From: a virus
Reading direction: 5' to 3' (one strand)
DNA: 64,000 bases
Virus record (IMG/VR): IMGVR_UViG_3300045988_174823
Part shown: positions 6,292 through 62,682 of the stretch, piece after piece
Position numbering within the stretch: the stretch's first letter is position 1
Layout of the letters: each line of letters begins with the position of its first letter
Notes under the pieces: generated by a model
What the model was told of the DNA's origin: nothing
The model's database searches: none
What the model saw: only the letters and a program-made list of their open reading frames with translations
Program-made: the position numbers and the translations under genes

Positions 6292-7238
6292 GGCCGTTTG
6301 TATATCTTCTCGACGCAGGGGCCGTCCTTCGATACGTCCTCAGCCATACGGCGAATTTCTGGCGTGATAGGCGGGAGCGTTTTCTTACCCATCTTATCAG
6401 GCAGGAAACCGACACGGACGCTGACATGTGTACACCCCTGACACGGACGGAACCGACGATCGTTGTTGTACAGCATCACGCGGGCAGCATGAAAGCGCGG
6501 ATGGTTCCAGAGGTCTTCGATAGGCATGTCGTGGATGTTGGCGATAGGGTACTCGCCGCGAAAGTCGTCGCAGCACAAGCACACCTGGCCGTTCCAACGC
6601 ACATCCAGTTCGCGGAACGGAAAAGTACATCGTTTGTTGTTGAACGAGTCGTCGAGCGGGAACGCTGCGCCACAGTGGTTAGCCAGACGACGCGTCATCT
6701 TGTTGGTATCGTCTTCGGCGATAGGCGGCAACAGACAGATACGGCGGCCCTGCTTGGGGTAGTAGTACGGAACGCCCGGTTCCAGCGTAACGACGTTGTA
6801 TTTCTCGATGTCGATTTTCTCGACGAAATTCCAGTCACCCTTAGCCGTATAGCAGTCCACCAGAATATCATTCATGCCGGCTTCAAAAAGACGGTCTAAA
6901 TATTCCGACGTATCCTTGGCGTGGTTCATACCGTACCCGTTGCTGTACATATGAAATACGGCTTTGGGCAGGTGTTTACGGAACGTAGCCACGATGTCGA
7001 TGAATGCGGGGTTGAGCGTCGGTTCGCCGTGCATAGCGAATACGAACTTACATTTCCACCCTACGCGGGCTACCTCTGAAGCGATACGCTCGGCGGTTTC
7101 AACGGTCATGAAATTCCACGGCTTAGTGCCTTTTTCGCGCATGCCGTGGAGACCGCAAAACGAACAACCCAGATTACACCCCTCCGTCGGTTCAATCTGC
7201 ATAGTGAACGGAGGGTCTTGTACGATTTTGTTTTTCAT
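6279..7238 (-). CDS. radical SAM enzyme with C-terminal Cys-rich (SPASM/twitch-like) domain
   Basis: EGCNLGCSFCG (CxxxCxxC) and HGEPTLNP. C-terminal CLCCDDFRG...RPCQGC. The ATG shares one nt with the stop of the MuF-like gene. Confidence 0.8.
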   Translation of the reverse strand: MKNKIVQDPPFTMQIEPTEGCNLGCSFCGLHGMREKGTKPWNFMTVETAERIASEVARVGWKCKFVFAMHGEPTLNPAFIDIVATFRKHLPKAVFHMYSNGYGMNHAKDTSEYLDRLFEAGMNDILVDCYTAKGDWNFVEKIDIEKYNVVTLEPGVPYYYPKQGRRICLLPPIAEDDTNKMTRRLANHCGAAFPLDDSFNNKRCTFPFRELDVRWNGQVCLCCDDFRGEYPIANIHDMPIEDLWNHPRFHAARVMLYNNDRRFRPCQGCTHVSVRVGFLPDKMGKKTLPPITPEIRRMAEDVSKDGPCVEKIYKRPWEK

Positions 7239-9268
7239 TATTTGGTAACTTTAATGTTAAGTTTCACGTTCTTTAACTTTGGGTTCTTAAACTGGCGTTT
7301 GATAGGCTTGATGAAAGCGCGGGTTGCAGGGTCCCAATCAAAGCCATCAGGAACGTGGTTGACTGTACACCGGCAATTGTGAACCACAATTCCATCGGCA
7401 ATGTAGCTTTCATCTTCGGCAACTGAAATATTGTACAATTTAGTGTACTTTTTAGATCTCGGAACTTGTTTAATGTATAAAACCTTCACACCACGCGAAA
7501 CTATTTGCCCCCGGTGATTTTTGAACAGCCGTTTCAGGCGGTTGTAAACCATATCGCCGTGGTTGTTTATCTCATCTTCAGTGAAGCGGAATGTCTCATA
7601 GCCGTAACACTCCAAAATGTCCTTATCGCGGTTGGAATCGTATTCCGGATCGTTGTGCCATTTTTCGCCGTCAGCCTCCAAAACAATCTTGAGATCGGGA
7701 ATCAGTAAATCGGGGAAATACCCCACAACATCGTTGCGGAACTTTCCGTTATTTTTCAAGAACACCCCTGTCTTAGCTTCAACTCCTAACGACTTACACA
7801 GATACTCCAACTTGCGCTCGATGAACGACCGTTTCTTACCATTGGTAGAATTAGTCTTCTTCAGCGCCTCAGCCATCCAAGGATACTCACCTTGATATTT
7901 ATCTTCGATAGCTTTTCTTGCTCTGGTGGTAAGTTTCTGACGATCGACAGCACTCATATTGGCATAACGAACAGCCATCTCTTCTTTGACTTTCTTACTC
8001 ATGTAAGAACGGAACTCTGTGTCTTGCCATTGCGAGACGCACTGTTCGCTCCGGTGACAAGCTATACACAGCCCCCTCTCCAAAAGAGTATCGCTGGCTG
8101 AAACGTATATTGGCATAAACGAACCGCATTTTTCACAACAAACACCTTCGATTGTTATCAAATCGCCTGTTTTCAATGAAGCAGCCTCTCGCCATTCACC
8201 GTTTGAAAGAATTGGATGATTTCCTGTTATACGACGCACCTTCCGTACCTTTTTACGCCCTAAAAGGTTTTTGACGGCATAATAGATGTCGTACAGGGGT
8301 TCATCCTTATGATCGTGAATAATCACTTCCGTAACAGGCCTAAACCTCCCTCGGTGAGTCAAAACCATATCCCCTTTCTTTAGAGAAGATATGTTTCTCC
8401 ATCCGTTGATGGTGTACACCTTTGTAGCCGGATTATTGAAACAATAGGGGTGCGTTGGGTCAATCGTAGGGAGCCATTCTGCCACCTTACGACCGATGTT
8501 GTTACCGTTAGCGATAAGGTCTGCCAAACGGAACAGTTTCGGTTTCGAGGTAGGGTCTTCGGGGTCTTCTAAGTACAACTCCCGGCACTTAGCGCACGCG
8601 CCTGGATAGACGTCGAAATACACTTTGGCGTCAGGACCGTGTTGCTTGAAAATACTTTCGGCACGGCCCACGTTGTAGGCTTCGTGTAGAAGGTAGTACG
8701 CAATACGCAGCCAATCGCGTCCCCAGTCTTGGGTAAGGTTTCCGAGTTCGCTGGCTATATACCGGGCTCCCTTACGGAGTTGAACAGCTTGAATGGCCTT
8801 GTCTTTTATTTGTTGACGTATTTCTGATTGTTGACGGAAATTCGATTTGAGTACAGCGTTGCGTGTTCCGGTGACGATACGATTACCAAGCGACGTGATG
8901 TCGGTATAGGCACGATTCTTGAGGTAGTTGAGCGCGTTTTCTTCCTGTTCGGTAAGCGGAACAAAGTTTCCCGATTTCAAGAACTGGAGAAACTGCTTGT
9001 AATTCATCTTCTTGGCGCGAGTGTCGCCAATTGCTTCGGCCAGTATTCCAAACAAAAAGGCGTGTTCGATGATGCCCTTTGAGTTCTTGTACTTATCGAC
9101 GTTGACCCCTGAAGCTACCAAGATATCAATTTCAGACTGCGTGAGGTAGTCCAATCCGACGTGCTTGGCAATAAAGAGATATTGCCAACGCCGGAGAATA
9201 CCGACCATGTCGTCTATTTGACGGTTGTTGAAAATCATAACTTTTCGACGTCTTTTCGGGGAATCCAT
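7238..9268 (-). CDS. MuF/SPP1 gp7-like head morphogenesis protein interrupted by an intein
   Basis: Removing residues 276-631 joins THPY to CRCTV. This restores the HPxCRC motif typical of Mu F/SPP1 gp7 family proteins. Confidence 0.7.
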   Translation of the reverse strand: MDSPKRRRKVMIFNNRQIDDMVGILRRWQYLFIAKHVGLDYLTQSEIDILVASGVNVDKYKNSKGIIEHAFLFGILAEAIGDTRAKKMNYKQFLQFLKSGNFVPLTEQEENALNYLKNRAYTDITSLGNRIVTGTRNAVLKSNFRQQSEIRQQIKDKAIQAVQLRKGARYIASELGNLTQDWGRDWLRIAYYLLHEAYNVGRAESIFKQHGPDAKVYFDVYPGACAKCRELYLEDPEDPTSKPKLFRLADLIANGNNIGRKVAEWLPTIDPTHPYCFNNPATKVYTINGWRNISSLKKGDMVLTHRGRFRPVTEVIIHDHKDEPLYDIYYAVKNLLGRKKVRKVRRITGNHPILSNGEWREAASLKTGDLITIEGVCCEKCGSFMPIYVSASDTLLERGLCIACHRSEQCVSQWQDTEFRSYMSKKVKEEMAVRYANMSAVDRQKLTTRARKAIEDKYQGEYPWMAEALKKTNSTNGKKRSFIERKLEYLCKSLGVEAKTGVFLKNNGKFRNDVVGYFPDLLIPDLKIVLEADGEKWHNDPEYDSNRDKDILECYGYETFRFTEDEINNHGDMVYNRLKRLFKNHRGQIVSRGVKVLYIKQVPRSKKYTKLYNISVAEDESYIADGIVVHNCRCTVNHVPDGFDWDPATRAFIKPIKRQFKNPKLKNVKLNIKVTK
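7376..8443 (-). mobile_element. intein (356 aa) with Zn-finger-like Cys cluster and DUF559/Vsr-like PD-(D/E)XK nuclease domain
   Basis: Starts with Cys (tgt, 8443-8441) and ends VVHN (aat, 7378-7376), followed by +1 Cys. Internal CCEKCG...CIACH cluster and PDLLIPDLKIVLEADGEKWHNDPEYDSNRDKDILECYGYETFRF. Confidence 0.7.
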
Positions 9269-24334: not shown

Positions 24335-27052
24335 CTAACCTAACATATCGAATTTAAATCCGGTAGTCATACGCGACGCCGCCAAGTCGGCCAGCCAAAA
24401 CGACGACGAAATATCATCGTGACTACCGACACTCTCCAGCCCTTTTTCGGTAAAGGCAACGGAACCGAGGTCTTGGAAGATGAGGTCCTTGACCTGCTGA
24501 GAATAAACGTTACCTATCGGGATGTGGATTTTGCCGCGCTCGAACAACGTCGAAAGGTGCGGCCATCCGGTCTTCAGGTCGTACTTATCAATTCCCGTAG
24601 TGTGACCAATAACGGGCATACCCTCGGTGTCGGCTGTCTCGACGAATATCTGTTGGAATGTGTTATTCTCCATCACGATAAGGTCAGGCCGGAAGCGGGA
24701 GTTGATACGGCGCAGAACGTTCATCTGCTCGAAAAACTTGGCACCTTTTTCACGGTAGAGGTGCAACAGCCAGCGCTCGTCGGTCAATTCGTCAATACCC
24801 CATACGCTAAATACGGCGTAGTCGGCGCCGACGTTGGCTGAAATAGCGAAGTCGCACCCGACAACCACTTTAGAGAACTTAATGGGGAATTCTTCGCGCG
24901 AATCAACCAACGTGTAATTTTCCATCCGCAGTAGCGAACGCGTGAGGATTTCCATCGGGAAGATTGACGACTCGTTGGTAATCGGGCGACAAAGGTTCTC
25001 ACGCGAGAAGATGATTGAACCCTGGGTCTCCTTTTTATCCATCAGGTCCTTAAACGACCAACGCTGGGGCCAAAGGATTCGTCCGTCGGGGAAGATGGCT
25101 GGATACTCGATAACGAACCAACCGTTCTTGGTCTTCAGGTCGCCGTAAAGGTCTTCGGCGTGGAACGGCGTACCGACGACGATAATCTGGCCACCAGGTA
25201 CGAGCATATTCATGATTACGGAGTGGAAATAGTCGGTGGACTTATTTCGTTGGAGACTGGAGTAAATGACGTTGTCCTTCAAGCCGTCATCTACGATAAT
25301 CCAATACGGGTGAGCACCACGCACCGACGATCCAAAACCTTTTCCCGTCAAACGTGCTCCGTTACGGCACACGATATTGGTAGCCGACCAGTTGTTGGCT
25401 GTCGATTGGGGAAACAGCCGTTCCTTCAATATCTCGTTTTCCTCAATAGTGCCTTTCAGAATCTCCAAAAGGTCCACACTCTGTTGTAACGAGAACGAGA
25501 ACAAGAATCCGCGATTTGATGAAGCTGCCGCAGGTCGTTTCGAGTAGCGGGTGGTTGACGGCTTCTTGTAACGGTATAGCTGCCACGCGGCGTAGGCGTT
25601 GGAGAAATAGAACGAGTTGTGCGTAACCGTACCGTCACCCAGCACGAAGCGGTGGTCGCCGTCGGTGGTGATAGATATGTAGTCACCTTCACCCGCGGGC
25701 GTGATCTTCAACGACGATACCACCGTAGGGTGTACGCCGTCGATAGTGCCCCAGTCCTTGTGTGACGTCTTGGCGGCCCAGTCGGTTTGGACCTTTTTAC
25801 GAGCGATCTTTACTGGGATGCGGTCCAGTTCACCAGAAATAGTCACGCACCACGACGAATAGTCGCGGCCTAACGCTTTACAATACCGCGTTCCACCACC
25901 CATTCGGGTACAGAAGCCAAGGCTGTCGGCCAAGTTCTTCACGTCACACACCAACTGGTAGTTCGTATTACCGAAGTGATAGCCGCCCTGCCAATAGTTA
26001 CCGTCGGAATCGATCAACCCAGCCAACACCTGAAGACGAACTTCTTCGCTGTTGACGAGGTACTGCTCCGGAATGTGCTTATTGTAGAGCAGGTTGTAAC
26101 CCTTGAGCATCCTTTCCAGCGGGTTACGCTTACCGCGGCCACGAACGTCAATTCCAAGTGTCACTACCATACCATTTTGGCCATAGTGAAGCCCCAAGCG
26201 CTCGGCGTAAGAGTGTAAGTACTCACACACTTCAGGGTCGGCGGTGGTGATCTTCTGGTTGTTGGAGTTGCCGTCGCCTAACCAGTACCCAAGAAAATAT
26301 GGTTCCAACCCCACGGGCCGCGTGGGGTACTGCACTGCCACCTTGAAACCGCGGTAACGTTCCTTCACCCAGTTCGGGGTCTTGCTTAAAAGCGTCGGAA
26401 TATCAATATCCACTATCCGCTTCGACGCTGTAGCGATGGAACCGTTGCGGTCCTTCTCGATCAGCGTACAAATGTGGCGTGAGTTGACGGTGTGGCTATC
26501 ACCGCGCGACTGGTCGATACGGTACATCATCGAATCGTGGCCACGGCGCGTAGCAACCACGCGGCGGGGCTTAGAGTCGATGCCCATCAACAAGTCGCCA
26601 ACCACAACGTCTTCGACCTTTTTGATAGTTCCGTCGTACATTCGGACGGGGGTTCCGACGGCTTCGCACTTTCCGTGGTCACGCGCTGCGTTGATACACA
26701 ATTTCTTGTGGTTATGGACTAATTCACCCCATTCCAGGTGGTGCCACGACAGCTGGAAGTCAGGGATAACAGAGGTGATGAAATACGTCAAGTTGGCGCA
26801 TCGTAGGGTATCTTCTACGACGGCCGAAACGTTTTCTTCGTAGCGGGGTTTGAAGTCAATCGACGCGTCACCCGTGTACATAATACGATATGTGTCCTCC
26901 AACAGAGCGTCGAATATCGTATCAACGTCGTGTATATCGCCACTCATCATCTCATTCAACCCACGCTCGTCCATACCCTCGATTATTTCATCAACGAGGT
27001 CTAAACAAGCCAAACGGTGCGTAACCGAGGGTGCTGTAATCTGAGGTATCAT
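24335..27052 (-). CDS. terL: terminase large subunit interrupted by an intein in the Walker A motif
   Basis: Removing residues 129-479 gives NAARDHGK-SFYFS (P-loop). The remaining ~550 aa have a terminase-like layout. Confidence 0.8.
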   Translation of the reverse strand: MIPQITAPSVTHRLACLDLVDEIIEGMDERGLNEMMSGDIHDVDTIFDALLEDTYRIMYTGDASIDFKPRYEENVSAVVEDTLRCANLTYFITSVIPDFQLSWHHLEWGELVHNHKKLCINAARDHGKCEAVGTPVRMYDGTIKKVEDVVVGDLLMGIDSKPRRVVATRRGHDSMMYRIDQSRGDSHTVNSRHICTLIEKDRNGSIATASKRIVDIDIPTLLSKTPNWVKERYRGFKVAVQYPTRPVGLEPYFLGYWLGDGNSNNQKITTADPEVCEYLHSYAERLGLHYGQNGMVVTLGIDVRGRGKRNPLERMLKGYNLLYNKHIPEQYLVNSEEVRLQVLAGLIDSDGNYWQGGYHFGNTNYQLVCDVKNLADSLGFCTRMGGGTRYCKALGRDYSSWCVTISGELDRIPVKIARKKVQTDWAAKTSHKDWGTIDGVHPTVVSSLKITPAGEGDYISITTDGDHRFVLGDGTVTHNSFYFSNAYAAWQLYRYKKPSTTRYSKRPAAASSNRGFLFSFSLQQSVDLLEILKGTIEENEILKERLFPQSTANNWSATNIVCRNGARLTGKGFGSSVRGAHPYWIIVDDGLKDNVIYSSLQRNKSTDYFHSVIMNMLVPGGQIIVVGTPFHAEDLYGDLKTKNGWFVIEYPAIFPDGRILWPQRWSFKDLMDKKETQGSIIFSRENLCRPITNESSIFPMEILTRSLLRMENYTLVDSREEFPIKFSKVVVGCDFAISANVGADYAVFSVWGIDELTDERWLLHLYREKGAKFFEQMNVLRRINSRFRPDLIVMENNTFQQIFVETADTEGMPVIGHTTGIDKYDLKTGWPHLSTLFERGKIHIPIGNVYSQQVKDLIFQDLGSVAFTEKGLESVGSHDDISSSFWLADLAASRMTTGFKFDMLG
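25616..26668 (-). mobile_element. intein (351 aa) with LAGLIDADG homing endonuclease
   Basis: Starts with Cys (tgc, 26668-26666) and ends VTHN (aac, 25618-25616), followed by +1 Ser. Contains LGYWLGDGNS and LAGLIDSDGNY. Confidence 0.8.
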
Positions 27053-49044: not shown

Positions 49045-49896
49045 CTATAAGATAATAACGTTGGTGCGAATCATACCCTTGAACCACCCATCAGGTACGG
49101 GAACTCCCTTTGGTAAACGTTTATTTTTCAATCCATTATTAATCCATACAAATTTCGTTCCGGTTAGCGGATGTGGATGGGTAGAATAGTATTTCTTCAT
49201 CCGTTCCGACACCACATTTTTATGTTTACTATAATATTTCTTGTTAGCTTCAGAAATTTTGCGTTTAGTATCATCCGACATTGCGCCTCGTACACGCCCT
49301 GACATAATTTCCGAATGTCTTCTTTTCCATTCTTCGGTGTGATGTTTACCGCGCAACGCCTCGGCAACTTTGTTTATGTGCTCTTGAGTCTTTTTCTTTC
49401 CTCTTAACGCTTTCGATATCTTTTCGCGGTGTTCTGCAGTGATAATTCTCCCGATAAGAGATTGGGACTTCTTGGCTTTTGACTCTTCTGATTGCTTAAT
49501 TCCTGTCATCCGAATCCTTATTGCTTCTCGCGCTGCTGGAGAAGATAACCTCCGTTTAGCGGCGATTGACATTTTACACTTAACCTCAGGAATTTTAGCC
49601 GGGTTTACTTGACCAAACATATTCGATGAACCCGGAAGGATGTTATATCCTATGTCCTTTTCAGTCGAGTGCAGCTTCTTGATGTAAAGCATCTCCCAAG
49701 CATCCAACTGAGGTTGTGTGTCGCAAATACGGAGCGTTTCACGCTTGAAATTCTCAGGGCCGTAATGTCTAACAGCTAAGAGCAAGTTCCTTCCGCTTCC
49801 CAAATACCCGTCGAATTCGTCAGATTCACAAACGTGTTAACCGATGTAAATCTTGCCGTTGACGAGGTTCGTAGTTTTGTAAATTATACCGTACAT
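49045..49896 (-). pseudogene. free-standing GIY-YIG homing endonuclease gene with an in-frame TAA at codon 20
   Basis: MYGIIYKTTNLVNGKIYIG*HVCESDEFDGYLGSG.... The TAA at 49839-49837 replaces the CAA found in the paralog at 59772. The rest of the frame stays open (NUMOD-like C-terminus). The first 32 nt are identical to copy 2. Confidence 0.75.
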
Positions 49897-55950: not shown

Positions 55951-56312
55951 TCTTTAGGTTCATGTTGGTTTACGTCGCCAAAACGTACACGACGCGTAAT
56001 TTCGATAATGAGATAATGAGCGGCTTTTTCCAAGTCGCGAATCAGACGGCTCTTGTTGTGCCCCACGGTGATGTATCGCTGGAGATAGCGCGTTACCTGG
56101 TAGATGTTAATGGCCGCACCGTGGTCCATGCCATATAACATCTTTTTGGTGTCGATAACCTTTTCACCATCGGCGTACTTATCAGAGTAGGTTCCGGCAA
56201 TGTGGTTGATAGTCATTGCCAGGGCCTGCGCGGCTTCAGGTTCAGATTGGCAGATACGCTCGATGTCATAAGACACCTGCGAAATTAATGAATCTTGAGT
56301 TTTCTTGTCCAT
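55947..56312 (-). CDS. DUF3310-like phage protein
   Basis: GAAINIYQVTRYLQRY...IRDLEKAAHYL resembles the NIxKYLxR...DLxKAxxYL signature. Confidence 0.4.
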   Translation of the reverse strand: MDKKTQDSLISQVSYDIERICQSEPEAAQALAMTINHIAGTYSDKYADGEKVIDTKKMLYGMDHGAAINIYQVTRYLQRYITVGHNKSRLIRDLEKAAHYLIIEITRRVRFGDVNQHEPKE

Positions 56313-56313
56313 G

Positions 56314-56961
56314 TTAAATTATATCGTTTTGTAAGTCATTAATGGCTCCTACCCATACGTACATCAGGCGTTCTTGCTCACAAATATCCGCCGATACACA
56401 CGTACTTTGTAACGTTGAAACCGCCCTACGATAGCTATCCTTACAATACGGTAATAAATCCAAAGGCCAAGAGCGGTTTCCCATCCCCACCTCACGATGC
56501 AAGAAATACAACAACGCCATCCAATCGGCCACCTTTACAATCGCGTGAGCAACGTCGTAATACGGTGCATCCTTTGAAAGCGTTTTGGCAATTACCGAAT
56601 CGTCTCCGAATTCGGCCATTACCTGGTGCGCAACAAACTCGTCCAAAACGTTACGCAGTTCCGACCCGTTATAAGCGTTATATTTAAGTTCGTGGGTGAT
56701 ATCGCGACGCAGAATAGCCTCGTCGAAGTCATGCATCAGCGCCATCTTCAGCGTCTGATACTTGAACGTAGCCACCGTATTATTATCGTCCCCTCCAGGC
56801 CAGAGATAGTCCAGCAGGCACATCGTGAAGACCGATACCTTGTACGAATGTTGCGAAACGCTTTCCTGCTGGTGGCGGTCATACTCCAACCACTGCTTGA
56901 TGTTATCCAACCGCGCAAGATGATCGCGGTTGAAGAGTTTGATTAAATCATCCTTTTGCAT
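56314..56961 (-). CDS. HD-domain 5'-deoxynucleotidase (YfbR-like) candidate
   Basis: ESVSQHSYKVSVFTMCLL and MALMHDFDEAILRRDITHELKY parallel YfbR ENVAEHS... and ...HDASEVLTGDLPTPVKY. Confidence 0.55.
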   Translation of the reverse strand: MQKDDLIKLFNRDHLARLDNIKQWLEYDRHQQESVSQHSYKVSVFTMCLLDYLWPGGDDNNTVATFKYQTLKMALMHDFDEAILRRDITHELKYNAYNGSELRNVLDEFVAHQVMAEFGDDSVIAKTLSKDAPYYDVAHAIVKVADWMALLYFLHREVGMGNRSWPLDLLPYCKDSYRRAVSTLQSTCVSADICEQERLMYVWVGAINDLQNDII

Positions 56962-56976
56962 AACCGATTTGTTTTA

Positions 56977-59022
56977 CTATTGTAATATCTCTAACCTTGT
57001 AGATTGTGAAGACTGTACGGTCTTCTTTCCAGCGAAATAATTCACACGCCCTGAAACAGCCACAATACGGTTCAACAGCGTAGCTTCGTTTTCCGGCTGA
57101 TGAAGCCAAAAGTCAGGCCACAACGTAATCTGGATGATGAGGTCGTTGACCTCCACTTGCAGTACACCGTAAGAATCGCCACCTTTGGTTTGACGTTCGA
57201 ATACGTTATTCGCACGACCAACGATACAAACCTCGTCGCCCTCGTGTTTACGCTCAAACTCGGCGGCGGTAACGTACAGCCGAACCATCCGTTTTCCGAG
57301 TCCGTATTCGTTCATCATACGTTCGTAGTCCACCTCGCCGTACCCGGTTAATTCACGCTGTTTGAAGACCCACCAGGCGTTAGTGTGAGCATCAGGCGAA
57401 GTGAATTCGTCGGAAAGCGGTTCACCGCGGCGTTCGAGATATTGCTTGACGATATCCAGACGCTGACGAGGATTGCGTATGTCTTCTACCAGATCGAACG
57501 CTCCAGCCATAATAAGACGCAACACCACAGTACGGTTTATGCCTTTAGGGGCAGAAGTTATGAAGTCCTCAAACGAGAACACTTCGCCGTGTTCATCTTT
57601 CATGGCTTTCAATAGCGTCAACGCCCGCTCGCCTACTCCCTTGACCTTACCCAGCGAAAAGAAGATACGGTTCGTCTTGGGGTCGCACGTAAAGGTTTCA
57701 CCCGAGAAATTGATATCCGGCGGACGGACCTCAATTTCGGCCCCGGTTTTCTTCATCTCCACCAAGCGATACGGGATATCGGACTCCTTCGAGGCGTACT
57801 GAAGCGACGTCGTCCAGAACTCCAGCGGGTAGTTAACCTTAAACCACTGTGACCAGTACGACATCATGGTATAGGCCACGGCGTGCGACTTGTTGAAGCC
57901 GTACCCTGAAAAGGCCAGCAGTTTGCTCCAAACCTCATCAGCCCGCGCTTCAGGTTTCTCAGTCAACCCGCGTTCGCGCAACAAGGTCGCGTATCCGGCA
58001 CGGAACTTATCGTGAAACGACTCGATAAGGTCCATATTTTTCTTCTTGATGGCGGTACGCAGGATATCGGATTCCACTGGACTCAGACCGCCTACAACGA
58101 CGGCTTTCATTATCTGCTCCTGGTAGGTATAGAGCGAATAGGTGTCGCGCGTTATTTCCTCCATACCGGGGTCGAATTTAGGCTTCCGGGCGCCATTCTT
58201 AATTTCAACGAACGTTTCGTGCGCCTTAACATCCATAGGACCCGGACGGAACAACGCCGTCATAGCGATAAGGTCGTCCAGGCTATGCGGTTTGGCCTCG
58301 CGGCAGTAGTTCATCAACCCCATAGCGCCAAACTGGAACACATCCTCGCACCAACCGCGCTGGAAATACCGGAATACCTCCTCGTCGTTGAACGGGATGG
58401 TGTTGACGTCGATTTGCTCCTTGCGGTTCTTGGCGATAAGTTTCAGAATAGATGAAAATTTATCCAGCTGGTTGAGACCTAAAATATCCTCTTTCAAGAA
58501 CCCTGACTTGTCGATATACTTACCCTCCCACTCGGAGACCAGCACACCACCCATGCGTTTCATAGGCATCCACCCGTAAAGGTCGATGGGGTTTCCGTCT
58601 TCGTCTTTCCGGGGTACGATGATAACGGCCGACGGATGAACTGAACCCGTCTTACACTGCGTAAGGGCGTATTTCGTCATGTGCACCAACTCCGGATGGT
58701 CCTGGACGAAACGGAACAATTCCCGCGACGTAGCGGCGTAGTTGAACAGGTCGCCCCACGTGTATTCTATCTGGTCGTCAATGTCCTTGGTGAGTTTATT
58801 CATCACCGCAAACGGCACGCCCATAACCTTACCAAAGTCCTTCAAACAGGTTTTCAGTTTCATGCGTGTGTACGTACCCACGGAGCAAACGTGGTCAACG
58901 CCGTAACGACGAGCCATGTACTCCTTTACCGTATCGCGGAACGCCACCGGGAAGTCGCAATCCACGTCCGGCATGCTGTCCTGACGAGCAACTTCAATCT
59001 TTTTTATTTTTAGAATTCTCAT
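56977..59022 (-). CDS. dnaE: DNA polymerase III alpha (DnaE-type), C-terminal piece starting at the catalytic PDxDxDF motif
   Basis: MRILKIKKIEVARQD-SMPDVDCDF, FRPGPMD and GYGFNKSHAVAYTMMSYWSQWFKVNYPLEFW. Its ATG (59022-59020) overlaps the endonuclease TGA as ATGA. Confidence 0.85.
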   Translation of the reverse strand: MRILKIKKIEVARQDSMPDVDCDFPVAFRDTVKEYMARRYGVDHVCSVGTYTRMKLKTCLKDFGKVMGVPFAVMNKLTKDIDDQIEYTWGDLFNYAATSRELFRFVQDHPELVHMTKYALTQCKTGSVHPSAVIIVPRKDEDGNPIDLYGWMPMKRMGGVLVSEWEGKYIDKSGFLKEDILGLNQLDKFSSILKLIAKNRKEQIDVNTIPFNDEEVFRYFQRGWCEDVFQFGAMGLMNYCREAKPHSLDDLIAMTALFRPGPMDVKAHETFVEIKNGARKPKFDPGMEEITRDTYSLYTYQEQIMKAVVVGGLSPVESDILRTAIKKKNMDLIESFHDKFRAGYATLLRERGLTEKPEARADEVWSKLLAFSGYGFNKSHAVAYTMMSYWSQWFKVNYPLEFWTTSLQYASKESDIPYRLVEMKKTGAEIEVRPPDINFSGETFTCDPKTNRIFFSLGKVKGVGERALTLLKAMKDEHGEVFSFEDFITSAPKGINRTVVLRLIMAGAFDLVEDIRNPRQRLDIVKQYLERRGEPLSDEFTSPDAHTNAWWVFKQRELTGYGEVDYERMMNEYGLGKRMVRLYVTAAEFERKHEGDEVCIVGRANNVFERQTKGGDSYGVLQVEVNDLIIQITLWPDFWLHQPENEATLLNRIVAVSGRVNYFAGKKTVQSSQSTRLEILQ

Positions 59023-59772
59023 TTCTTTCTCGGTTTCATTCCATGCCAAAATCCATCGGGGAGAGAGGCGTCCTTGCAAATAGTAGCGTTTATTTCGCCG
59101 TTAGTTATCCTAACTTTGCCTTGCATAGGGTTCGTGTATCCACGTTCATACCTATCGCGTAATTTCTTTCCAAAATCTTTTCGCCGCTCCTCGGGCCAGC
59201 GATTATGCCAGTTAGGGTTATTTTCACCCTTGTATCGCCCTTTCATTTTAGCCGACAAATTTGCCTTTTGTTCAGCCGTCCATCGGTTGCCGTAGTTTGG
59301 ATTCTTTTCGCCTATGTATCGCCCTTTTAAGGTCTTCGAAATTTTTTTTCTTATAATCAGTATTATCTAAAGCAATTTGACGTTTTTGATGAATTTGCTT
59401 CATTAATTCTGGATGATTCTTGAATGTCTTTTTAAGCGACCGTGAAACTTTCAAAGCAACCTCTGGAATCAACATGGGTGAGCCGCTTCCAAACTTATTA
59501 GCCGTACCCGATAAGATATTGTAGCCAATCCTCTTATTGGTTGAATTGAGTTTCTTGATGTATAGCATTCCCCAGGCGTCGAGTTGTAACTGGGTATCGC
59601 ATACGCGGAGCGTTTCACGCTTGAAGTTCTCAGGTCCGTAATGTTTAACCGCGTTCGTCAAAGATACACCACTACCCAAATACCCGTCAAACTCGTCAGA
59701 TTCGCAAACATGTTGGCCGATATAAATCTTGCCGTTAATTAGGTTCGTAGTTTTGTAAATTATACCGTACAT
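59019..59772 (-). mobile_element. GIY-YIG homing endonuclease gene inserted in dnaE, split into two frames at an A8 run
   Basis: ORF 59272-59772 has GIIY...KIYIG. The NUMOD3-like repeats (GEKNPNYG, GENNPNWH) continue in the frame of ORF 59019-59258, open from 59366. The frames meet at sense-strand A8 (plus T8 at 59342-59349), and A7 would give one ORF. Confidence 0.75.
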
Positions 59773-61463
59773 AAAGTTCGCAATTTATCAATATCTATGT
59801 CGAGGTCTATATTTGATAAATCGCAGTCTATGTCTATCGCTTCCCCGCTTCGAAGAGGAATCTTAGTATTTTCAGGCAACTTGAATTTCCCGTATCCTTC
59901 TATTTCTATCTCCCAGAATTTTGGGATGTTAACACGCGTCTCGTTCAAGAAACGCTCAAACATCAAGTTGTATTTCAGCGGATCAACATCCGTAATATAC
60001 AGGCAATACGCAATCAGCGAACCACACACTGAACCACGGCCCGACCCGGTCATGATACCTTGTTCGCGGCACCAGTTCATGATGTCCCAAAGTATCATAA
60101 AGTAGTCGCACAGCCCGTTCGGCACGATAATGGCACATTCCTTTTCCAACTCGGCCATATAGTGGTCGAGATTATCGACTTTACCTACTAACCGCTCTTG
60201 TACGCCAGCTTCAAGTTTTTCAAAAAAGGCGTCTTCAACCGTAGTTTTTACAAACTCGTATTTCGGTAGATGGCGTATTCCGACGGGTATCTGAAAGTCT
60301 ATACTCTCCGTCAACGTAGTGGAATTAGCCATGCCATCAATTATCTTTTCGTAAAGGGGCGCGGCTACGTCCATCCACTCTTCATACGCTAAAATCGTCT
60401 CTTTTGAGTTTTTGAAATACTGGGTTGCGCTTTCGGCATTGACCACGCCTGCCACCTTGTTCAGGAGCGACTTCAGCGGAGCCTCTTCAGGGTCGAGATA
60501 GTACGAGTCGTTGATAACGAGCGGTGGTGTATCGCGGTAAAGTTTAATTTTACGGCAACGACATACGTAGGTATCAATACTTTCCAAGTGATCGCGGAAT
60601 AAGGTTTCGGACGCGTACTCCACCGTATCGATCTGGTAATACACACGGTCGAATGCGGCGTGATAGGCCGTCAGTAACCGCTTGCAACGCTCGACATCTC
60701 CCTTGAAATAGTTTAATTCACTGTCAGGCGGTATTACACATACCAGGCCGCGTCCTAACTTGTAGAGTTCTTCCGCGGGTATAAACCCCTGATAATCGAC
60801 GTTTATAGCCTTATTAACCAATAACAGGTTACGCCATCCGTGGGTACTCATGGCGTATAGCTTCAACGAAAAAGTTTCCTGAACATCAGCTGCCGGATCA
60901 TAGTTACAAACCACGGTAACGGTTTCACCGATGATAGGTTTCAGTCCCTTGCCTAAGCAAGCGGTCTGAAAGGCGAGCGTGCCAGCCAGCGTATTACGGT
61001 CACAAATACCCAGAGCCGTCATACGGTTGAATTTGGCCTTAGCAGCCCACTCTTCGCAGTTGGACGAACCGTTCAAGAACTCGTATTCGCTATGAACACC
61101 CAGGTGAACGAACGGAACCAGTTCCTCAGCCGTGCTTGTACCAAGATATTTGAAGTCGCGGAATTCGGGACGGAAAACCACAGTTTTATCCAGCCGCAGG
61201 TGGTCCTTTTTGATATTCGAGTAGTAGAACTTGCCGCCGAATTCGAAGAGAATGTATTTCACCACGCCATCGTACAGTGCGTCGAATTCAGCAGCCGTTA
61301 CTGCGAACGAGAATCGTTCGTCGATTATCTTTCCGCTATCGTCGGGGTGTAGGTACAAGAAGTCCCCTACACCCTCAATGGCGATTATGTTCAATTCGTC
61401 GTCGCGCTTTTCTTCGATAGCCAGATAGTTATCTTCCGCCCACCGACGTAGCGAGTCAGTCAT
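59760..61463 (-). CDS. dnaE: DNA polymerase III alpha (DnaE-type), N-terminal piece (PHP domain to just before the catalytic Asp motif)
   Basis: FVHLGVHSEYEFLNGS (PHP) and GRGSVCGSLIAYCLYITDVDPLKYNLMFERFLNETRV. A 56-aa non-canonical tail then runs into the endonuclease start. Confidence 0.85.
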   Translation of the reverse strand: MTDSLRRWAEDNYLAIEEKRDDELNIIAIEGVGDFLYLHPDDSGKIIDERFSFAVTAAEFDALYDGVVKYILFEFGGKFYYSNIKKDHLRLDKTVVFRPEFRDFKYLGTSTAEELVPFVHLGVHSEYEFLNGSSNCEEWAAKAKFNRMTALGICDRNTLAGTLAFQTACLGKGLKPIIGETVTVVCNYDPAADVQETFSLKLYAMSTHGWRNLLLVNKAINVDYQGFIPAEELYKLGRGLVCVIPPDSELNYFKGDVERCKRLLTAYHAAFDRVYYQIDTVEYASETLFRDHLESIDTYVCRCRKIKLYRDTPPLVINDSYYLDPEEAPLKSLLNKVAGVVNAESATQYFKNSKETILAYEEWMDVAAPLYEKIIDGMANSTTLTESIDFQIPVGIRHLPKYEFVKTTVEDAFFEKLEAGVQERLVGKVDNLDHYMAELEKECAIIVPNGLCDYFMILWDIMNWCREQGIMTGSGRGSVCGSLIAYCLYITDVDPLKYNLMFERFLNETRVNIPKFWEIEIEGYGKFKLPENTKIPLRSGEAIDIDCDLSNIDLDIDIDKLRTLCTV

Positions 61464-61464
61464 A

Positions 61465-62682
61465 TTACAGGAGTTTATTGATTTCTGCGTTAGAAAACCT
61501 TGCCGCGAAGAAATTGCGAGCCAACATCAGGTAGTCCCACTTTTCTTCAACGGATACGGTCCCTGTGATACGGTCCATCAGCACAAAGCACGACTTCAGC
61601 AACGAATCACGGTCATCCTTATAGGCACCAATATTTCGCTTGTAGAAGACGTACACCTTCAACATCTGGTAAACTACCCAGAAATAGGTTGATTTCTCAA
61701 ATACGTAGTTCTCAAACCCGGCCTCGTCTTCCAAGATATTGCCTTTTGCGTATCGCACCGCCAAACGATTTATCATCTCTTCCATAAAGGCCGTTATTTC
61801 ACACAGGCGGTTTACCGGAACCTCCGATTCGAACTTAAAGTCCATCATATACGACATCGCTCCCTCGTAATACAAGCTGCGGCGCGTATTATTGGACACG
61901 AAAAGTTCGCTCATCTGCTCGGCGATATTATTCCATTCGTAGATATGGAGCGACTGCGAGTTGTGAGTCTGAACACCTAACTCTACCCCCAAGCAGAGGG
62001 ACATTACCTCCGTCAGGAACGAGAACTGAAAGATGTTCGTTGGTAAGCCCCAGTGGAGATCATTCGAACGGTTCTGGACCGTGGTAACGAGTTTCCCATC
62101 GCGGATTTTCAACATCACCATATCGTTACACGGCAAGTCCTTCGATTTCACGCCGAGGTCAAACTTAGGATTCCAAATCGACATCACAACCTGACGTGTT
62201 TCCGGGTCAGTGCTCAGCAGGCGAATGGCTTCCTTCACCTGATCCAGGCCCGGGTCCATCGACTCACCCTCGGACGAAATACCCCAATGACGCAAACGCC
62301 AGCCGTAGGGAGCGTGGAACGTAACGCCATTATCGGAAAAATCGACCATCTTGCCGTTGAAGATCTTCAGGAACTCGACGTCCTTACGGCCCGTAACTAT
62401 CCACATAGCTTCAGCCAGCAGGAAGAAGATGTTGATGTTGCGGGCATAGCCGCCTACACAGCGGCGATACGGGTTGTTGATTATTGTCTTGACATCGAGC
62501 AGTTCGCGTACCTTACCAGCACGAGAATCCTGAAGCGGGAGCGTCGTCATCATCGTGCGGTTGATATACGGATACACCTCGGCGAACGAACCGCGCGGAT
62601 CGGTAAATACCACACGCCGCCGATAGTCAAACTCAAAACGGCTAATGCCTGTTTCGGTCTGGGAAATTGATTCTTGCTTCAT
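61465..62682 (-). CDS. thymidylate synthase-family enzyme (ThyA or dUMP hydroxymethylase) with ~130-aa C-terminal extension
   Basis: Motifs TRQVVMSIWNPKFDL, DLPCNDMVMLKI, VQNRSNDLHWGLPTNIFQFSFL and SLHIYE. Confidence 0.8.
   Translation of the reverse strand: MKQESISQTETGISRFEFDYRRRVVFTDPRGSFAEVYPYINRTMMTTLPLQDSRAGKVRELLDVKTIINNPYRRCVGGYARNINIFFLLAEAMWIVTGRKDVEFLKIFNGKMVDFSDNGVTFHAPYGWRLRHWGISSEGESMDPGLDQVKEAIRLLSTDPETRQVVMSIWNPKFDLGVKSKDLPCNDMVMLKIRDGKLVTTVQNRSNDLHWGLPTNIFQFSFLTEVMSLCLGVELGVQTHNSQSLHIYEWNNIAEQMSELFVSNNTRRSLYYEGAMSYMMDFKFESEVPVNRLCEITAFMEEMINRLAVRYAKGNILEDEAGFENYVFEKSTYFWVVYQMLKVYVFYKRNIGAYKDDRDSLLKSCFVLMDRITGTVSVEEKWDYLMLARNFFAARFSNAEINKLL

Follow-up and report, generated by a model that had tools for sequence, protein, structure and literature searches.

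A bacteriophage dnaE gene divided at its catalytic site by a GIY-YIG endonuclease cassette: a probable genes-in-pieces replicative polymerase

Among described systems, the closest to the locus reported here is nrdA-a/mobE/nrdA-b of Aeromonas phage Aeh1 (Crona et al. 2011, PMC3045599, where an earlier description of these genes-in-pieces is cited). In that system, a free-standing homing endonuclease gene splits the gene of an essential enzyme within the active site, the endonuclease gene overlaps the downstream piece, and the pieces are translated separately without RNA or protein splicing. The inserted region, which has its own guanine-plus-cytosine (GC) profile, provides oppositely charged C- and N-terminal tails. 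These features recur, the separate translation as a proposal, in a 64,000-nt stretch of viral DNA (IMG/VR record IMGVR_UViG_3300045988_174823), the whole of which is called the window below. Its dnaE gene, encoding the alpha subunit of DNA polymerase III (Pol III), is divided into an upstream N piece and a downstream C piece with a GIY-YIG endonuclease gene between them. The reading favored here, to which we assign a probability of roughly 0.85, is that of a genes-in-pieces replicative polymerase, whose two pieces are made separately and reassemble non-covalently without RNA or protein splicing.

As in Aeh1, two adjacent open reading frames (ORFs) on the same strand are colinear with an unsplit homologue and enclose the endonuclease gene, both pieces are under purifying selection, and the downstream piece has a start codon of its own. 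The two systems differ in the proteins involved, which are a ribonucleotide reductase and an HNH endonuclease in Aeh1 and a C-family replicative polymerase and a GIY-YIG endonuclease here. The polarity of the charges is also reversed, with an acidic N-piece tail and a basic C-piece leader here. Furthermore, the Aeh1 case is unique, whereas the tails described here form a conserved family with fused, split, endonuclease-less and cargo-carrying variants across many phages. An intein ancestry is speculation for Aeh1, whereas some sequence support for it is found here.

In its construction, the locus resembles the fractured genes of Dassa et al. (2009, PMC2677866), in which the N part of the host protein with the N half of a module is followed by a GIY-YIG gene and then by the C half of the module with the C part of the host protein. 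Complementary charges on the interacting strands and, as judged from the alignments below, a break at the canonical endonuclease-insertion site of inteins are also common to both. However, the fractured genes keep six HINT motifs, five catalytic residues and N halves of 88-105 residues, whereas the module here comprises 56 + 15 aa and lacks blocks A, F and G and the splicing residues, so that ligation is not expected.

Two-cistron replication enzymes are likewise described, partly in work cited in PMC2677866 and PMC3045599, for T4-like Aeromonas phages, where the B-family polymerase gp43 is split, in one case with a GIY-YIG gene in the gap, and for T4, where gp39/gp60 is split by mobA. In these cases, the endonuclease gene is sometimes still present between the cistrons, and function is presumably restored by subunit assembly. 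The split gp43 differs from the present case in polymerase family and split position. We know of no conserved docking module described for split gp43 or gp39/gp60. The cyanobacterial DnaE with the Ssp/Npu split intein is an enzyme of the same family in two pieces, and the tail and leader described here align weakly across the natural split site of Npu. However, the cyanobacterial pieces come from loci far from each other, the protein is divided elsewhere, and efficient trans-splicing joins the two parts.

The present locus would work like NrdA-a/mobE/NrdA-b of Aeh1 and is built like a fractured gene. It is set apart from both by the host enzyme, the family-wide conservation of the module, the absence of splicing residues and the natural allele series. 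With this locus, a C-family replicative polymerase joins the very few enzymes for which functioning as genes-in-pieces has been shown or inferred.

Division of dnaE at the catalytic site

As listed in Table 1, the break in DnaE lies between the nucleotide-binding motif GSGRGS and the catalytic motif PDVDCDF. The last DnaE-like codon of the N piece is V (59933-59931), and DnaE resumes at the S of SMPDVDCDF (58977-58975). The palm of Pol III alpha is Pol-beta-like, and the cut parts its nucleotide-binding Gly-Ser motif from the catalytic DxD strand. The N ORF matches Pfam PHP (E = 7e-16) and positions 5-103 of the DNA_pol3_alpha profile (E = 5e-32), and the C ORF matches positions 98-260 of the same profile, DNA_pol3_finger and HHH_6. 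When both ORFs are pooled, the PHP, palm, finger and HhH domains are above the Pfam cut-offs and the GS and DxD motifs are present.

Table 1. Features of the divided dnaE locus. Coordinates refer to the whole 64,000-nt window, and all features of the locus are on the minus strand.
Feature	Coordinates	Strand	Description
DnaE N ORF	61463-59760	(-)	567 aa including the 56-aa tail; stop codon TAA 59762-59760
DnaE N-piece core	59931..61463	(-)	PHP and first half of the Pol-beta-like palm; ends ...ERFLNETRV
GSGRGS nucleotide-binding motif	60047-60030	(-)	N piece
Tail of N piece	59763..59930	(-)	56 aa, acidic, NIPKFWEIEIEGYGKFKLPENTKIPLRSGEAIDIDCDLSNIDLDIDIDKLRTLCTV; putative N half of split docking module
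RNA hairpin	59769..59833	(-)	Within the last ~20 tail codons; 3' arm pairs with the endonuclease AUG 59772-59770
GIY-YIG endonuclease gene	59019..59772	(-)	Free-standing, NUMOD3-like repeats, frameshifted; ATG 59772-59770
DnaE C ORF	59022-56977	(-)	681 aa; ATG 59022-59020
Leader of C piece	58978..59022	(-)	15 codons, basic, MRILKIKKIEVARQD; putative C half of split docking module
DnaE C-piece core	56977..58977	(-)	Rest of palm, thumb, fingers, HhH, C-terminal part, stop codon
Catalytic motif PDVDCDF	58971-58951	(-)	C piece

This agrees with the first-pass annotation of the window, which had described a DnaE split at its catalytic Asp motif with a GIY-YIG gene in between, and whose positions for the end of the N piece and the start of the C piece, 15-codon leader and ATGA overlap were found again on the minus strand. 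That annotation had also joined the pieces directly as ETRV/SMPD. The piece boundaries of this join stand, but the nearest unsplit relatives do not have this direct join and read ETRV-SGERAKSAD-S[LM]PD.

The ratio of non-synonymous to synonymous substitution rates (dN/dS) is ~0.01 in the last 60 codons of the N piece and 0.01-0.02 in the first 60 codons of the C piece, the flanks overall giving 0.01-0.13, and all catalytic motifs are intact across the two pieces. A broken gene, with the host polymerase used in its place, or a split produced in assembly or sequencing would be in line with the frameshift of the endonuclease gene described below, which shows decay or a homopolymer error at the locus. 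However, neither accounts for a dN/dS of ~0.01-0.02 in both halves, for the intact motifs, or for the occurrence of the same split in ~30 independent contigs and three cultured phage lineages, and we regard both as extremely unlikely.

No terminator was found on the minus strand between the N and C pieces, and the two halves are for this reason probably co-transcribed. They are probably translated separately into the 567-aa and 681-aa pieces, with an independent start at the leader ATG. This ATG has no Shine-Dalgarno sequence, which is normal for this genome, because a Shine-Dalgarno-like core was found upstream of just 6 of the 60 larger minus-strand genes of the window. The rarity of these motifs and the hosts of the nearest isolates, which infect Bacteroides, Chryseobacterium, Cellulophaga and Tenacibaculum, suggest a Bacteroidota host. 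The tail, the endonuclease gene and the leader have GC contents of 37.5, 41.8 and 31.1%, respectively (40.6% for the cassette), compared to 48-52% in the DnaE cores and 49.6% in the whole window.

Megablast of the locus against GenBank phages gave no near-identical match. The split is present in cultured phages. Cellulophaga phage phiST has two adjacent genes annotated in GenBank as 'DNA polymerase III alpha subunit', gp044 (525 aa) and gp045 (673 aa), which are 1 nt apart; its tail reads ...YKLTLEDGSIVELPEGT...IHDIIEGDDLIKY-stop and its leader MKIINIEQNTAPKLVNGT. Tenacibaculum phage Larrie has two adjacent dnaE genes with tail and leader, as in phiST. In Bacteroides phage BS-TP1 (PQ571274.1), a 577-aa N piece with a 77-aa tail is followed by a Dda-like helicase gene (L074 5710-7035) and then by the C piece, which is unannotated and starts MRITKIQEH...EHGS/LPDVD, where the slash marks the junction with DnaE. 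This C piece runs off the end of the linear record (L074 7036-8650, L075 8006-8659), and the other end of the record is annotated as a 217-aa 'DNA polymerase III subunit alpha'; the gene is apparently interrupted by the ends of the record. In Bacteroides phage DAC16, the ORF is fused, with a length of 1277 aa and a 59-aa insert, and Chryseobacterium phage MA9V-3 has no insert. Because a split DnaE is carried by plaque-forming phages, viable phages probably replicate with it. No paper describing the split DnaE of these cultured phages was found in the literature. For annotation, where a phage related to those of Bacteroidota hosts has two neighboring genes named 'DNA polymerase III alpha', they should be taken as one functional enzyme and not as pseudogenes.

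Alleles of the insertion site in related phages

The junctions of dnaE were mapped in a set of 71 related viral contigs. In 37 of them, the gene is unsplit and reads ERFLNETRV-SGERAKSAD-S[LM]PDIDxDF, with the 9-aa loop SGERAKSAD. Two contigs (L053 and L067) have an in-frame fused allele with a 61-aa insert at the site of this loop, and ~30 are split at the same point as the window. The gap of the split loci holds a GIY-YIG gene in 18 cases, no endonuclease in nine and unrelated genes in three. In the nine endonuclease-less loci, the distance from the stop codon to the ATG is 0, −4, 0, 1 and 8 nt in five, 116 nt in one and 64 nt in three, where the 64-nt spacer is a clean deletion remnant of an L001-type endonuclease. 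The cargo in the gap is a GH16 glycoside hydrolase or an EcoRI-like adenine methyltransferase (a 243-aa ORF in L050/L051 and a 281-aa ORF in L058), and the gap between the dnaE pieces seems to have become an insertion hotspot for cargo.

The N part is 88-97% identical to that of the window in the related contigs and 89-97% in the unsplit close relatives, and the C parts are 85-94% identical in most close relatives. Split and unsplit alleles are intermixed in the range of 88-97%; L060 is unsplit at 97%, and L012 and L055 are split at 88%. The codons flanking the cassette follow the cassette type, with NQSRV, NSNRV or NETRV upstream and ARQDSMPDV downstream, compared to AKSADSLPDI in unsplit alleles, which is the variation that variable co-conversion tracts would produce. 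The cassette, consisting of tail, endonuclease gene and leader, is mobile as a unit. This AT-rich cassette has replaced the 9-residue surface loop of DnaE between GSGRGS and the catalytic DxD strand. In other lineages, the endonuclease gene was deleted or cargo took its place, and the polymerase there is permanently one of two subunits.

If the endonuclease ORF were instead carried by a group I intron, RNA splicing would join 59931 to ~58980 and produce one full-length DnaE. Endonuclease genes at the catalytic sites of phage polymerase genes are often intron-borne, and a U before the 5' junction and a G at the 3' end are available, which is trivially true. However, the search for introns with Rfam, suggested by the first-pass annotation, gave no match at E <= 10 over 56000-62000, and no match at the gathering threshold was obtained in seven related loci, endonuclease-less ones included. 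The outer 168 nt on the 5' side and 45 nt on the 3' side of the insert are protein-coding and under purifying selection, and no non-coding RNA feature beyond a simple hairpin was found. Five endonuclease-less relatives have stop and start codons that overlap or are separated by 0-8 nt, which leaves no room for a ribozyme, and the endonuclease-less 271-nt insert of L002 folds like its shuffles (z = +0.57). The proposed splicing would also remove the 9-residue loop that is present in all 37 unsplit relatives, and a single splicing mechanism would not accommodate such varied inserts. An intron at this site has next to no probability on this evidence. The earlier preference for two separate polypeptides over a group I intron is upheld by the endonuclease-less relatives that stay split, by the cargo genes in the gap, by the coding-type evolution of the tail and leader and by the cultured phages in which two dnaE genes are annotated at this point.

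The natural allele series consists of no insert, fused, split with endonuclease, split without endonuclease and split with cargo, and it includes the cultured phages phiST, Larrie, BS-TP1, DAC16 and MA9V-3. The possible docking role of the tails and their possible split-intein descent, which are considered in the following section, are therefore directly testable.

Two other insertion sites were observed in dnaE of these relatives. A second genes-in-pieces split is found in L059 and L060 (about locus 7020-7921), ~335 codons into the C part, where a paralogous GIY-YIG gene, 62% identical, is located at ...HYADLLMNLDKKKEQV-stop / MGLSRKEAEKIAEGVW. Added tails are nearly absent at this site, where ...LMNLDKKKEQV-stop closes the upstream piece and MGLSRKEAEKIAEGVW opens the downstream one. 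A true intein of ~262 aa with an HNH domain is in frame in dnaE of L047, L049, L055, L062 and L060 (about locus 7146-7933) at the site GYGFNK/C...VVTCN/SHAVAY and is without counterpart in the window. In L047, Pfam Intein_splicing scores 34.8 bits against a cut-off of 35.8, and HNH_3 and HNH are above their cut-offs. With the main split, the second split and the HNH intein, dnaE of this phage group is a hotspot with at least three insertion sites.

The tail-leader module and its resemblance to split inteins

The end of the N piece had been taken as a read-through tail in the first-pass annotation. However, ~30 split loci and metagenomic N-terminal protein fragments have homologous tails, and the tails and leaders of all split loci align as a single family. 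The tail follows the pattern x-A-H-H-x-Y-x-L-T-x-E-D-G-...-G-D-x-[IV]-P-L-x-G-G-...-[LI]-D-I-D-V, or a variant of the window type, and the leader follows M-K-[VI]-K-x-[VI]-K-.... M-[KR]-[VIAP] is the start, with stops just upstream, of all leaders obtained from the related contigs and of all called C-piece protein fragments, and the last leader residues ARQDS correspond to AKSADS of the unsplit alleles. The dN/dS of tail + leader is 0.03-0.15 over 18-27 synonymous differences; in the tail + leader codons, synonymous and non-synonymous differences number 25 and 5 between L003 and L009 and 16 and 3 between L056 and L063. The tail and leader are, in other words, conserved protein under purifying selection and not a read-through product.

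The net charge in the window is −5 for the tail and +3 for the leader. In 14 family members, the charge of the tails ranges from −1 to −10 (mean −5.5), and that of the first 10 leader residues ranges from +1 to +5 (mean +2.9). In the fused alleles, the two module halves form one contiguous unit of ~60 aa with a short turn between them (...LKLNF-KQG-KVNSC...). As compared across the family, the tail and leader are a conserved, selected acidic/basic split module, which travels with the endonuclease as an AT-rich cassette. In the mechanism proposed here, the active site would be rebuilt non-covalently, the acidic tail and the basic leader together making up a single small module rich in beta-strands. 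The strand ...IDLDIDID... at the end of the tail and the strand MRILKIKKIEV at the start of the leader probably form a hairpin with each other, as in the fused alleles, and would thereby hold the pieces together. A compact, non-splicing and charge-complementary split module of this kind could serve as a protein-assembly tag.

The tail had been noted earlier to echo the motif PDxDxDF. The likeness of IDLDIDID to this motif is real and strong enough that the MAFFT alignments were limited by repeated misalignment of the tail IDIDxD with the catalytic PDIDxDF. A duplicated catalytic motif was considered and rejected, since the similarity at the DNA level is limited to GAY codons. In phiST and BS-TP1, EGDDLI or EGDDII takes the place of IDLDIDID, and the fused allele has LKLNF there. 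The echo is explained by an RNA inverted repeat together with an alternating-Asp strand. It does not look like a copy of the active site and is more readily understood as a conserved beta-strand that belongs to the split docking module and whose coding sequence also forms the RNA hairpin.

An exhaustive phmmer search of tail + leader against 1.84 billion proteins gave just three real matches (P0022, P0029 and P0050), and the module was therefore not found outside dnaE. The top-scoring matches were repeat-rich proteins of 1,257-4,565 aa and were taken as spurious; P0045 is a Cna_B repeat adhesin, and P0044 is presumably an AHNAK repeat protein. A word-indexed protein search returned short fragments only and no fused full-length protein.

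The pieces could also assemble by the native palm interface alone, in which case the tail and leader would be passengers or have another role, such as regulation of the endonuclease via the hairpin or contact with another replisome subunit. In Aeh1, the NrdA tails are not required for formation of the a/b heterodimer (PMC3045599), the second split site in L059 and L060 is almost without tails, and the hairpin could account for part of the conservation of the tail. However, tails and leaders are under purifying selection where the endonuclease has long been lost, where regulation by a hairpin would have no purpose. The charge complementarity is consistent across the 14 members, and the fused alleles show the halves as parts of one contiguous module. 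Assembly by the palm alone is considered unlikely for these reasons.

Several points weigh against docking by the module as proposed above. The separate translation, association and activity of the pieces are all what we infer, and the strand-pairing model comes from the sequence pattern and the fused allele. AlphaFold2 gave a predicted local distance difference test score (pLDDT) of 47.7 for tail + leader alone, which is uninformative on the pairing. For a 262-aa window chimera with unpaired rows, the model had beta-strands in tail and leader, but its pLDDT of 56.5 was too low for searching by fold and is likewise uninformative. The NrdA tails of Aeh1 are needed for dimerization of the heterodimers and not for association of the fragments (PMC3045599), and by analogy the role of the tail here could likewise differ from simple docking.

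The origin of the module was considered using a profile of 15 modules. Against all PDB sequences, its top match was a DnaE intein (E = 0.13), and 9 of the 22 listed matches were split inteins (Npu/Ssp-type DnaE and gp41-1); profile positions 4-63 fell on Npu residues 56-107, crossing the natural split site. Comparison with six split inteins by hhalign gave P = 5e-5 and a probability of 67%, which is a lead and not a curated test. The observed score was 30, whereas column-shuffled controls scored 9 at the median and 13.6 at the 95th percentile, and 1 of 200 was as high. In the Viterbi path of hhalign, the tail corresponds to intein block B, and the start Met of the leader falls exactly on that of the Npu DnaE C-intein (MRILKIK vs MIKIATRK). 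By this correspondence of the two Met residues, the free-standing GIY-YIG gene between the module halves is located at the canonical intein split site. We take the EGDDLI/EGDDII strand to resemble the motif that precedes the endonuclease-insertion site of inteins. The best Pfam match of the BS-TP1 module (77 + 33 aa) was PF14890 Intein_splicing (E = 7e-4, 19.8 bits against a cut-off of 35.8), and a block-A-like string, xLAPSDTTII, with Gly/Ala in place of Cys, was recognized in it by eye. The gene order, which is exactly that of the fractured genes, points the same way as these individually weak signals. It is probable, at slightly better than even odds and not proven, that the module is what remains of a split intein, decayed and with its break at the canonical endonuclease-insertion site.

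This descent has to be set against the following results. The similarity to inteins is below the family threshold everywhere (PDB E-values of 0.09-1.4, hhalign probability of 53-67%). With a broader profile, Tudor-domain hairpins score slightly above inteins, and the hhalign probability drops to 53%. The module is without blocks A, F and G and all catalytic residues. No N-terminal nucleophile or block A was found, the first tail residue being N, T, E, K, S, G or A across the family. The TxxH of block B is absent, with D, N or E at the His position and a variable Thr position, though the region aligns to block B. There is no C-terminal His-Asn and no +1 Cys/Ser/Thr, as the leaders, with ~14-16 aa remaining, have ...ARQD, ...FFTD or ...FRSD as their last residues and continue into the native A, F or L. 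No intein family was obtained in the Pfam scan of the 15 modules, and true inteins of the same phage group were readily detected.

A functional split intein, in which the tail and leader would trans-splice to a seamless DnaE, has the gene order in its favor, since N half, GIY-YIG gene and C half are arranged exactly as in the fractured genes, three of which are in dnaE (Dassa et al. 2009, PMC2677866). The tail also resembles block B, the leader resembles the start of a C-intein, and true inteins occur in dnaE of the relatives and in the terminase of the window. However, the module has just 61-72 aa, whereas a minimal HINT domain comprises ~130 aa. The N halves alone have 88-105 residues in Dassa et al. 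(PMC2677866). It has no conserved Cys/Ser nucleophile, the His of TxxH is replaced, and the terminal HN is absent with A, F or L at +1. The fused alleles of L053, L067 and DAC16 keep the module in frame and are equally without splicing residues, and the Pfam intein models are below threshold. Protein splicing today is very unlikely. As the defining features of both inteins and introns were tested and are not present, the insert is read as neither, and the module of the genes-in-pieces polymerase would have kept an association interface while losing all splicing residues.

It is more tentatively suggested, with somewhat less than even confidence, that the tail, endonuclease and leader constitute a distinct mobile element, a 'non-splicing split intein', which has lost splicing, has kept the capture interface and splits an essential gene at the active site, so that the product becomes an enzyme of two subunits. 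After decay of the endonuclease, the gene would stay split, and the gap would become a landing pad for GH16, methylase and helicase genes. If true, such an element would connect fractured genes with tail-assisted genes-in-pieces, as the missing link on which Crona et al. (2011) speculated.

A large terminase in the window (24335-27052, minus strand, 905 aa) contains a LAGLIDADG homing-endonuclease intein. Pfam Hom_end_hint (E = 8e-12), Hom_end and LAGLIDADG_3 match at about residues 130-383, and PHROG terminase matches flank this region.

The endonuclease gene and its start-codon hairpin

The endonuclease has the motif GIIYK-x10-YIGQ. Its Pfam scores are 23.8-24.1 for SegE_GIY-YIG (cut-off 25), 18 for GIY-YIG (cut-off 22.6) and 17.1 for NUMOD3 (cut-off 20.4), and the related endonuclease of L052 is above the NUMOD3 cut-off. 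The first-pass annotation had treated it as one gene, which does not apply in the window, where a 166-aa first frame (59772-59272, stop 59274-59272) is followed by a second frame extending to 59019. The A8 run at 59349-59342 has one base more than the intact 250-aa gene, which is present in 9 of 10 aligned close relatives; the relatives read AAG-(A/G)AAAGAA-TTTC at this site, and the window reads AAG-AAAAAAAA-TTTC. The endonuclease of the relative L049 is also damaged. The extra base is more likely decay or a homopolymer sequencing error, and the run could be a site of low-level transcriptional slippage. A programmed frameshift was considered and rejected, as it needs a +1 shift or the loss of one A in the transcript at a lineage-specific A8, where the relatives have AAAAGAA or GAAAGAA.

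The start of the endonuclease gene overlaps the N ORF by 13 nt, and its terminal TGA (59021-59019) overlaps the ATG of the C ORF as ATGA, which is a trait of the cassette family. This overlap had been used as an argument for translational coupling and two polypeptides. The overlap itself exists, but the argument is weakened in this genome because the endonuclease frame ending in that TGA is frameshifted off. Ribosomes on the endonuclease frame would stop ~250 nt upstream, and therefore the C piece would have to initiate independently.

A second free-standing GIY-YIG gene of the window (49045-49896, minus strand), located between an SbcC-like gene and the next ORF, is 45% identical to the dnaE-associated one, from which its N-terminus hardly differs, and has an in-frame stop at codon 20 (YIG-stop-H). 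With the A8 frameshift and this stop, both endonucleases of this genome are damaged, and the endonuclease of the dnaE locus is degenerating. A candidate target for an intact endonuclease of the L003 type is the unsplit-allele stretch GAGACGCGTGTGTCGGGTGAACGCGCCAAGTCAGCCGAC.

The hairpin listed in Table 1 has a minimum free energy of −17.1 kcal/mol with z = −3.9, and those of the relatives have z = −3.5 to −5.1. Similar hairpins are present in the more distant cassettes of L035 and L018. The hairpin is conserved: in six distinct sequences, pairing in the inner 17-bp helix amounts to 95%, and two of its pairs are changed in both partners, whereas slid controls reach 33-49%. By analogy with mobE of Aeh1, for which an RNA structure that limits translation of the endonuclease is described (PMC3045599), the hairpin at the AUG probably restrains translation of the endonuclease here. 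Hairpins are also drawn upstream of the endonucleases of fractured genes (PMC2677866).

Immediately upstream of dnaE, a 405-aa protein of the thymidylate synthase family (PHROG 5131, E = 2e-69) is encoded at 61465-62682 on the minus strand. It is longer than a typical ThyA and could be an enzyme of the dNMP hydroxymethylase type.

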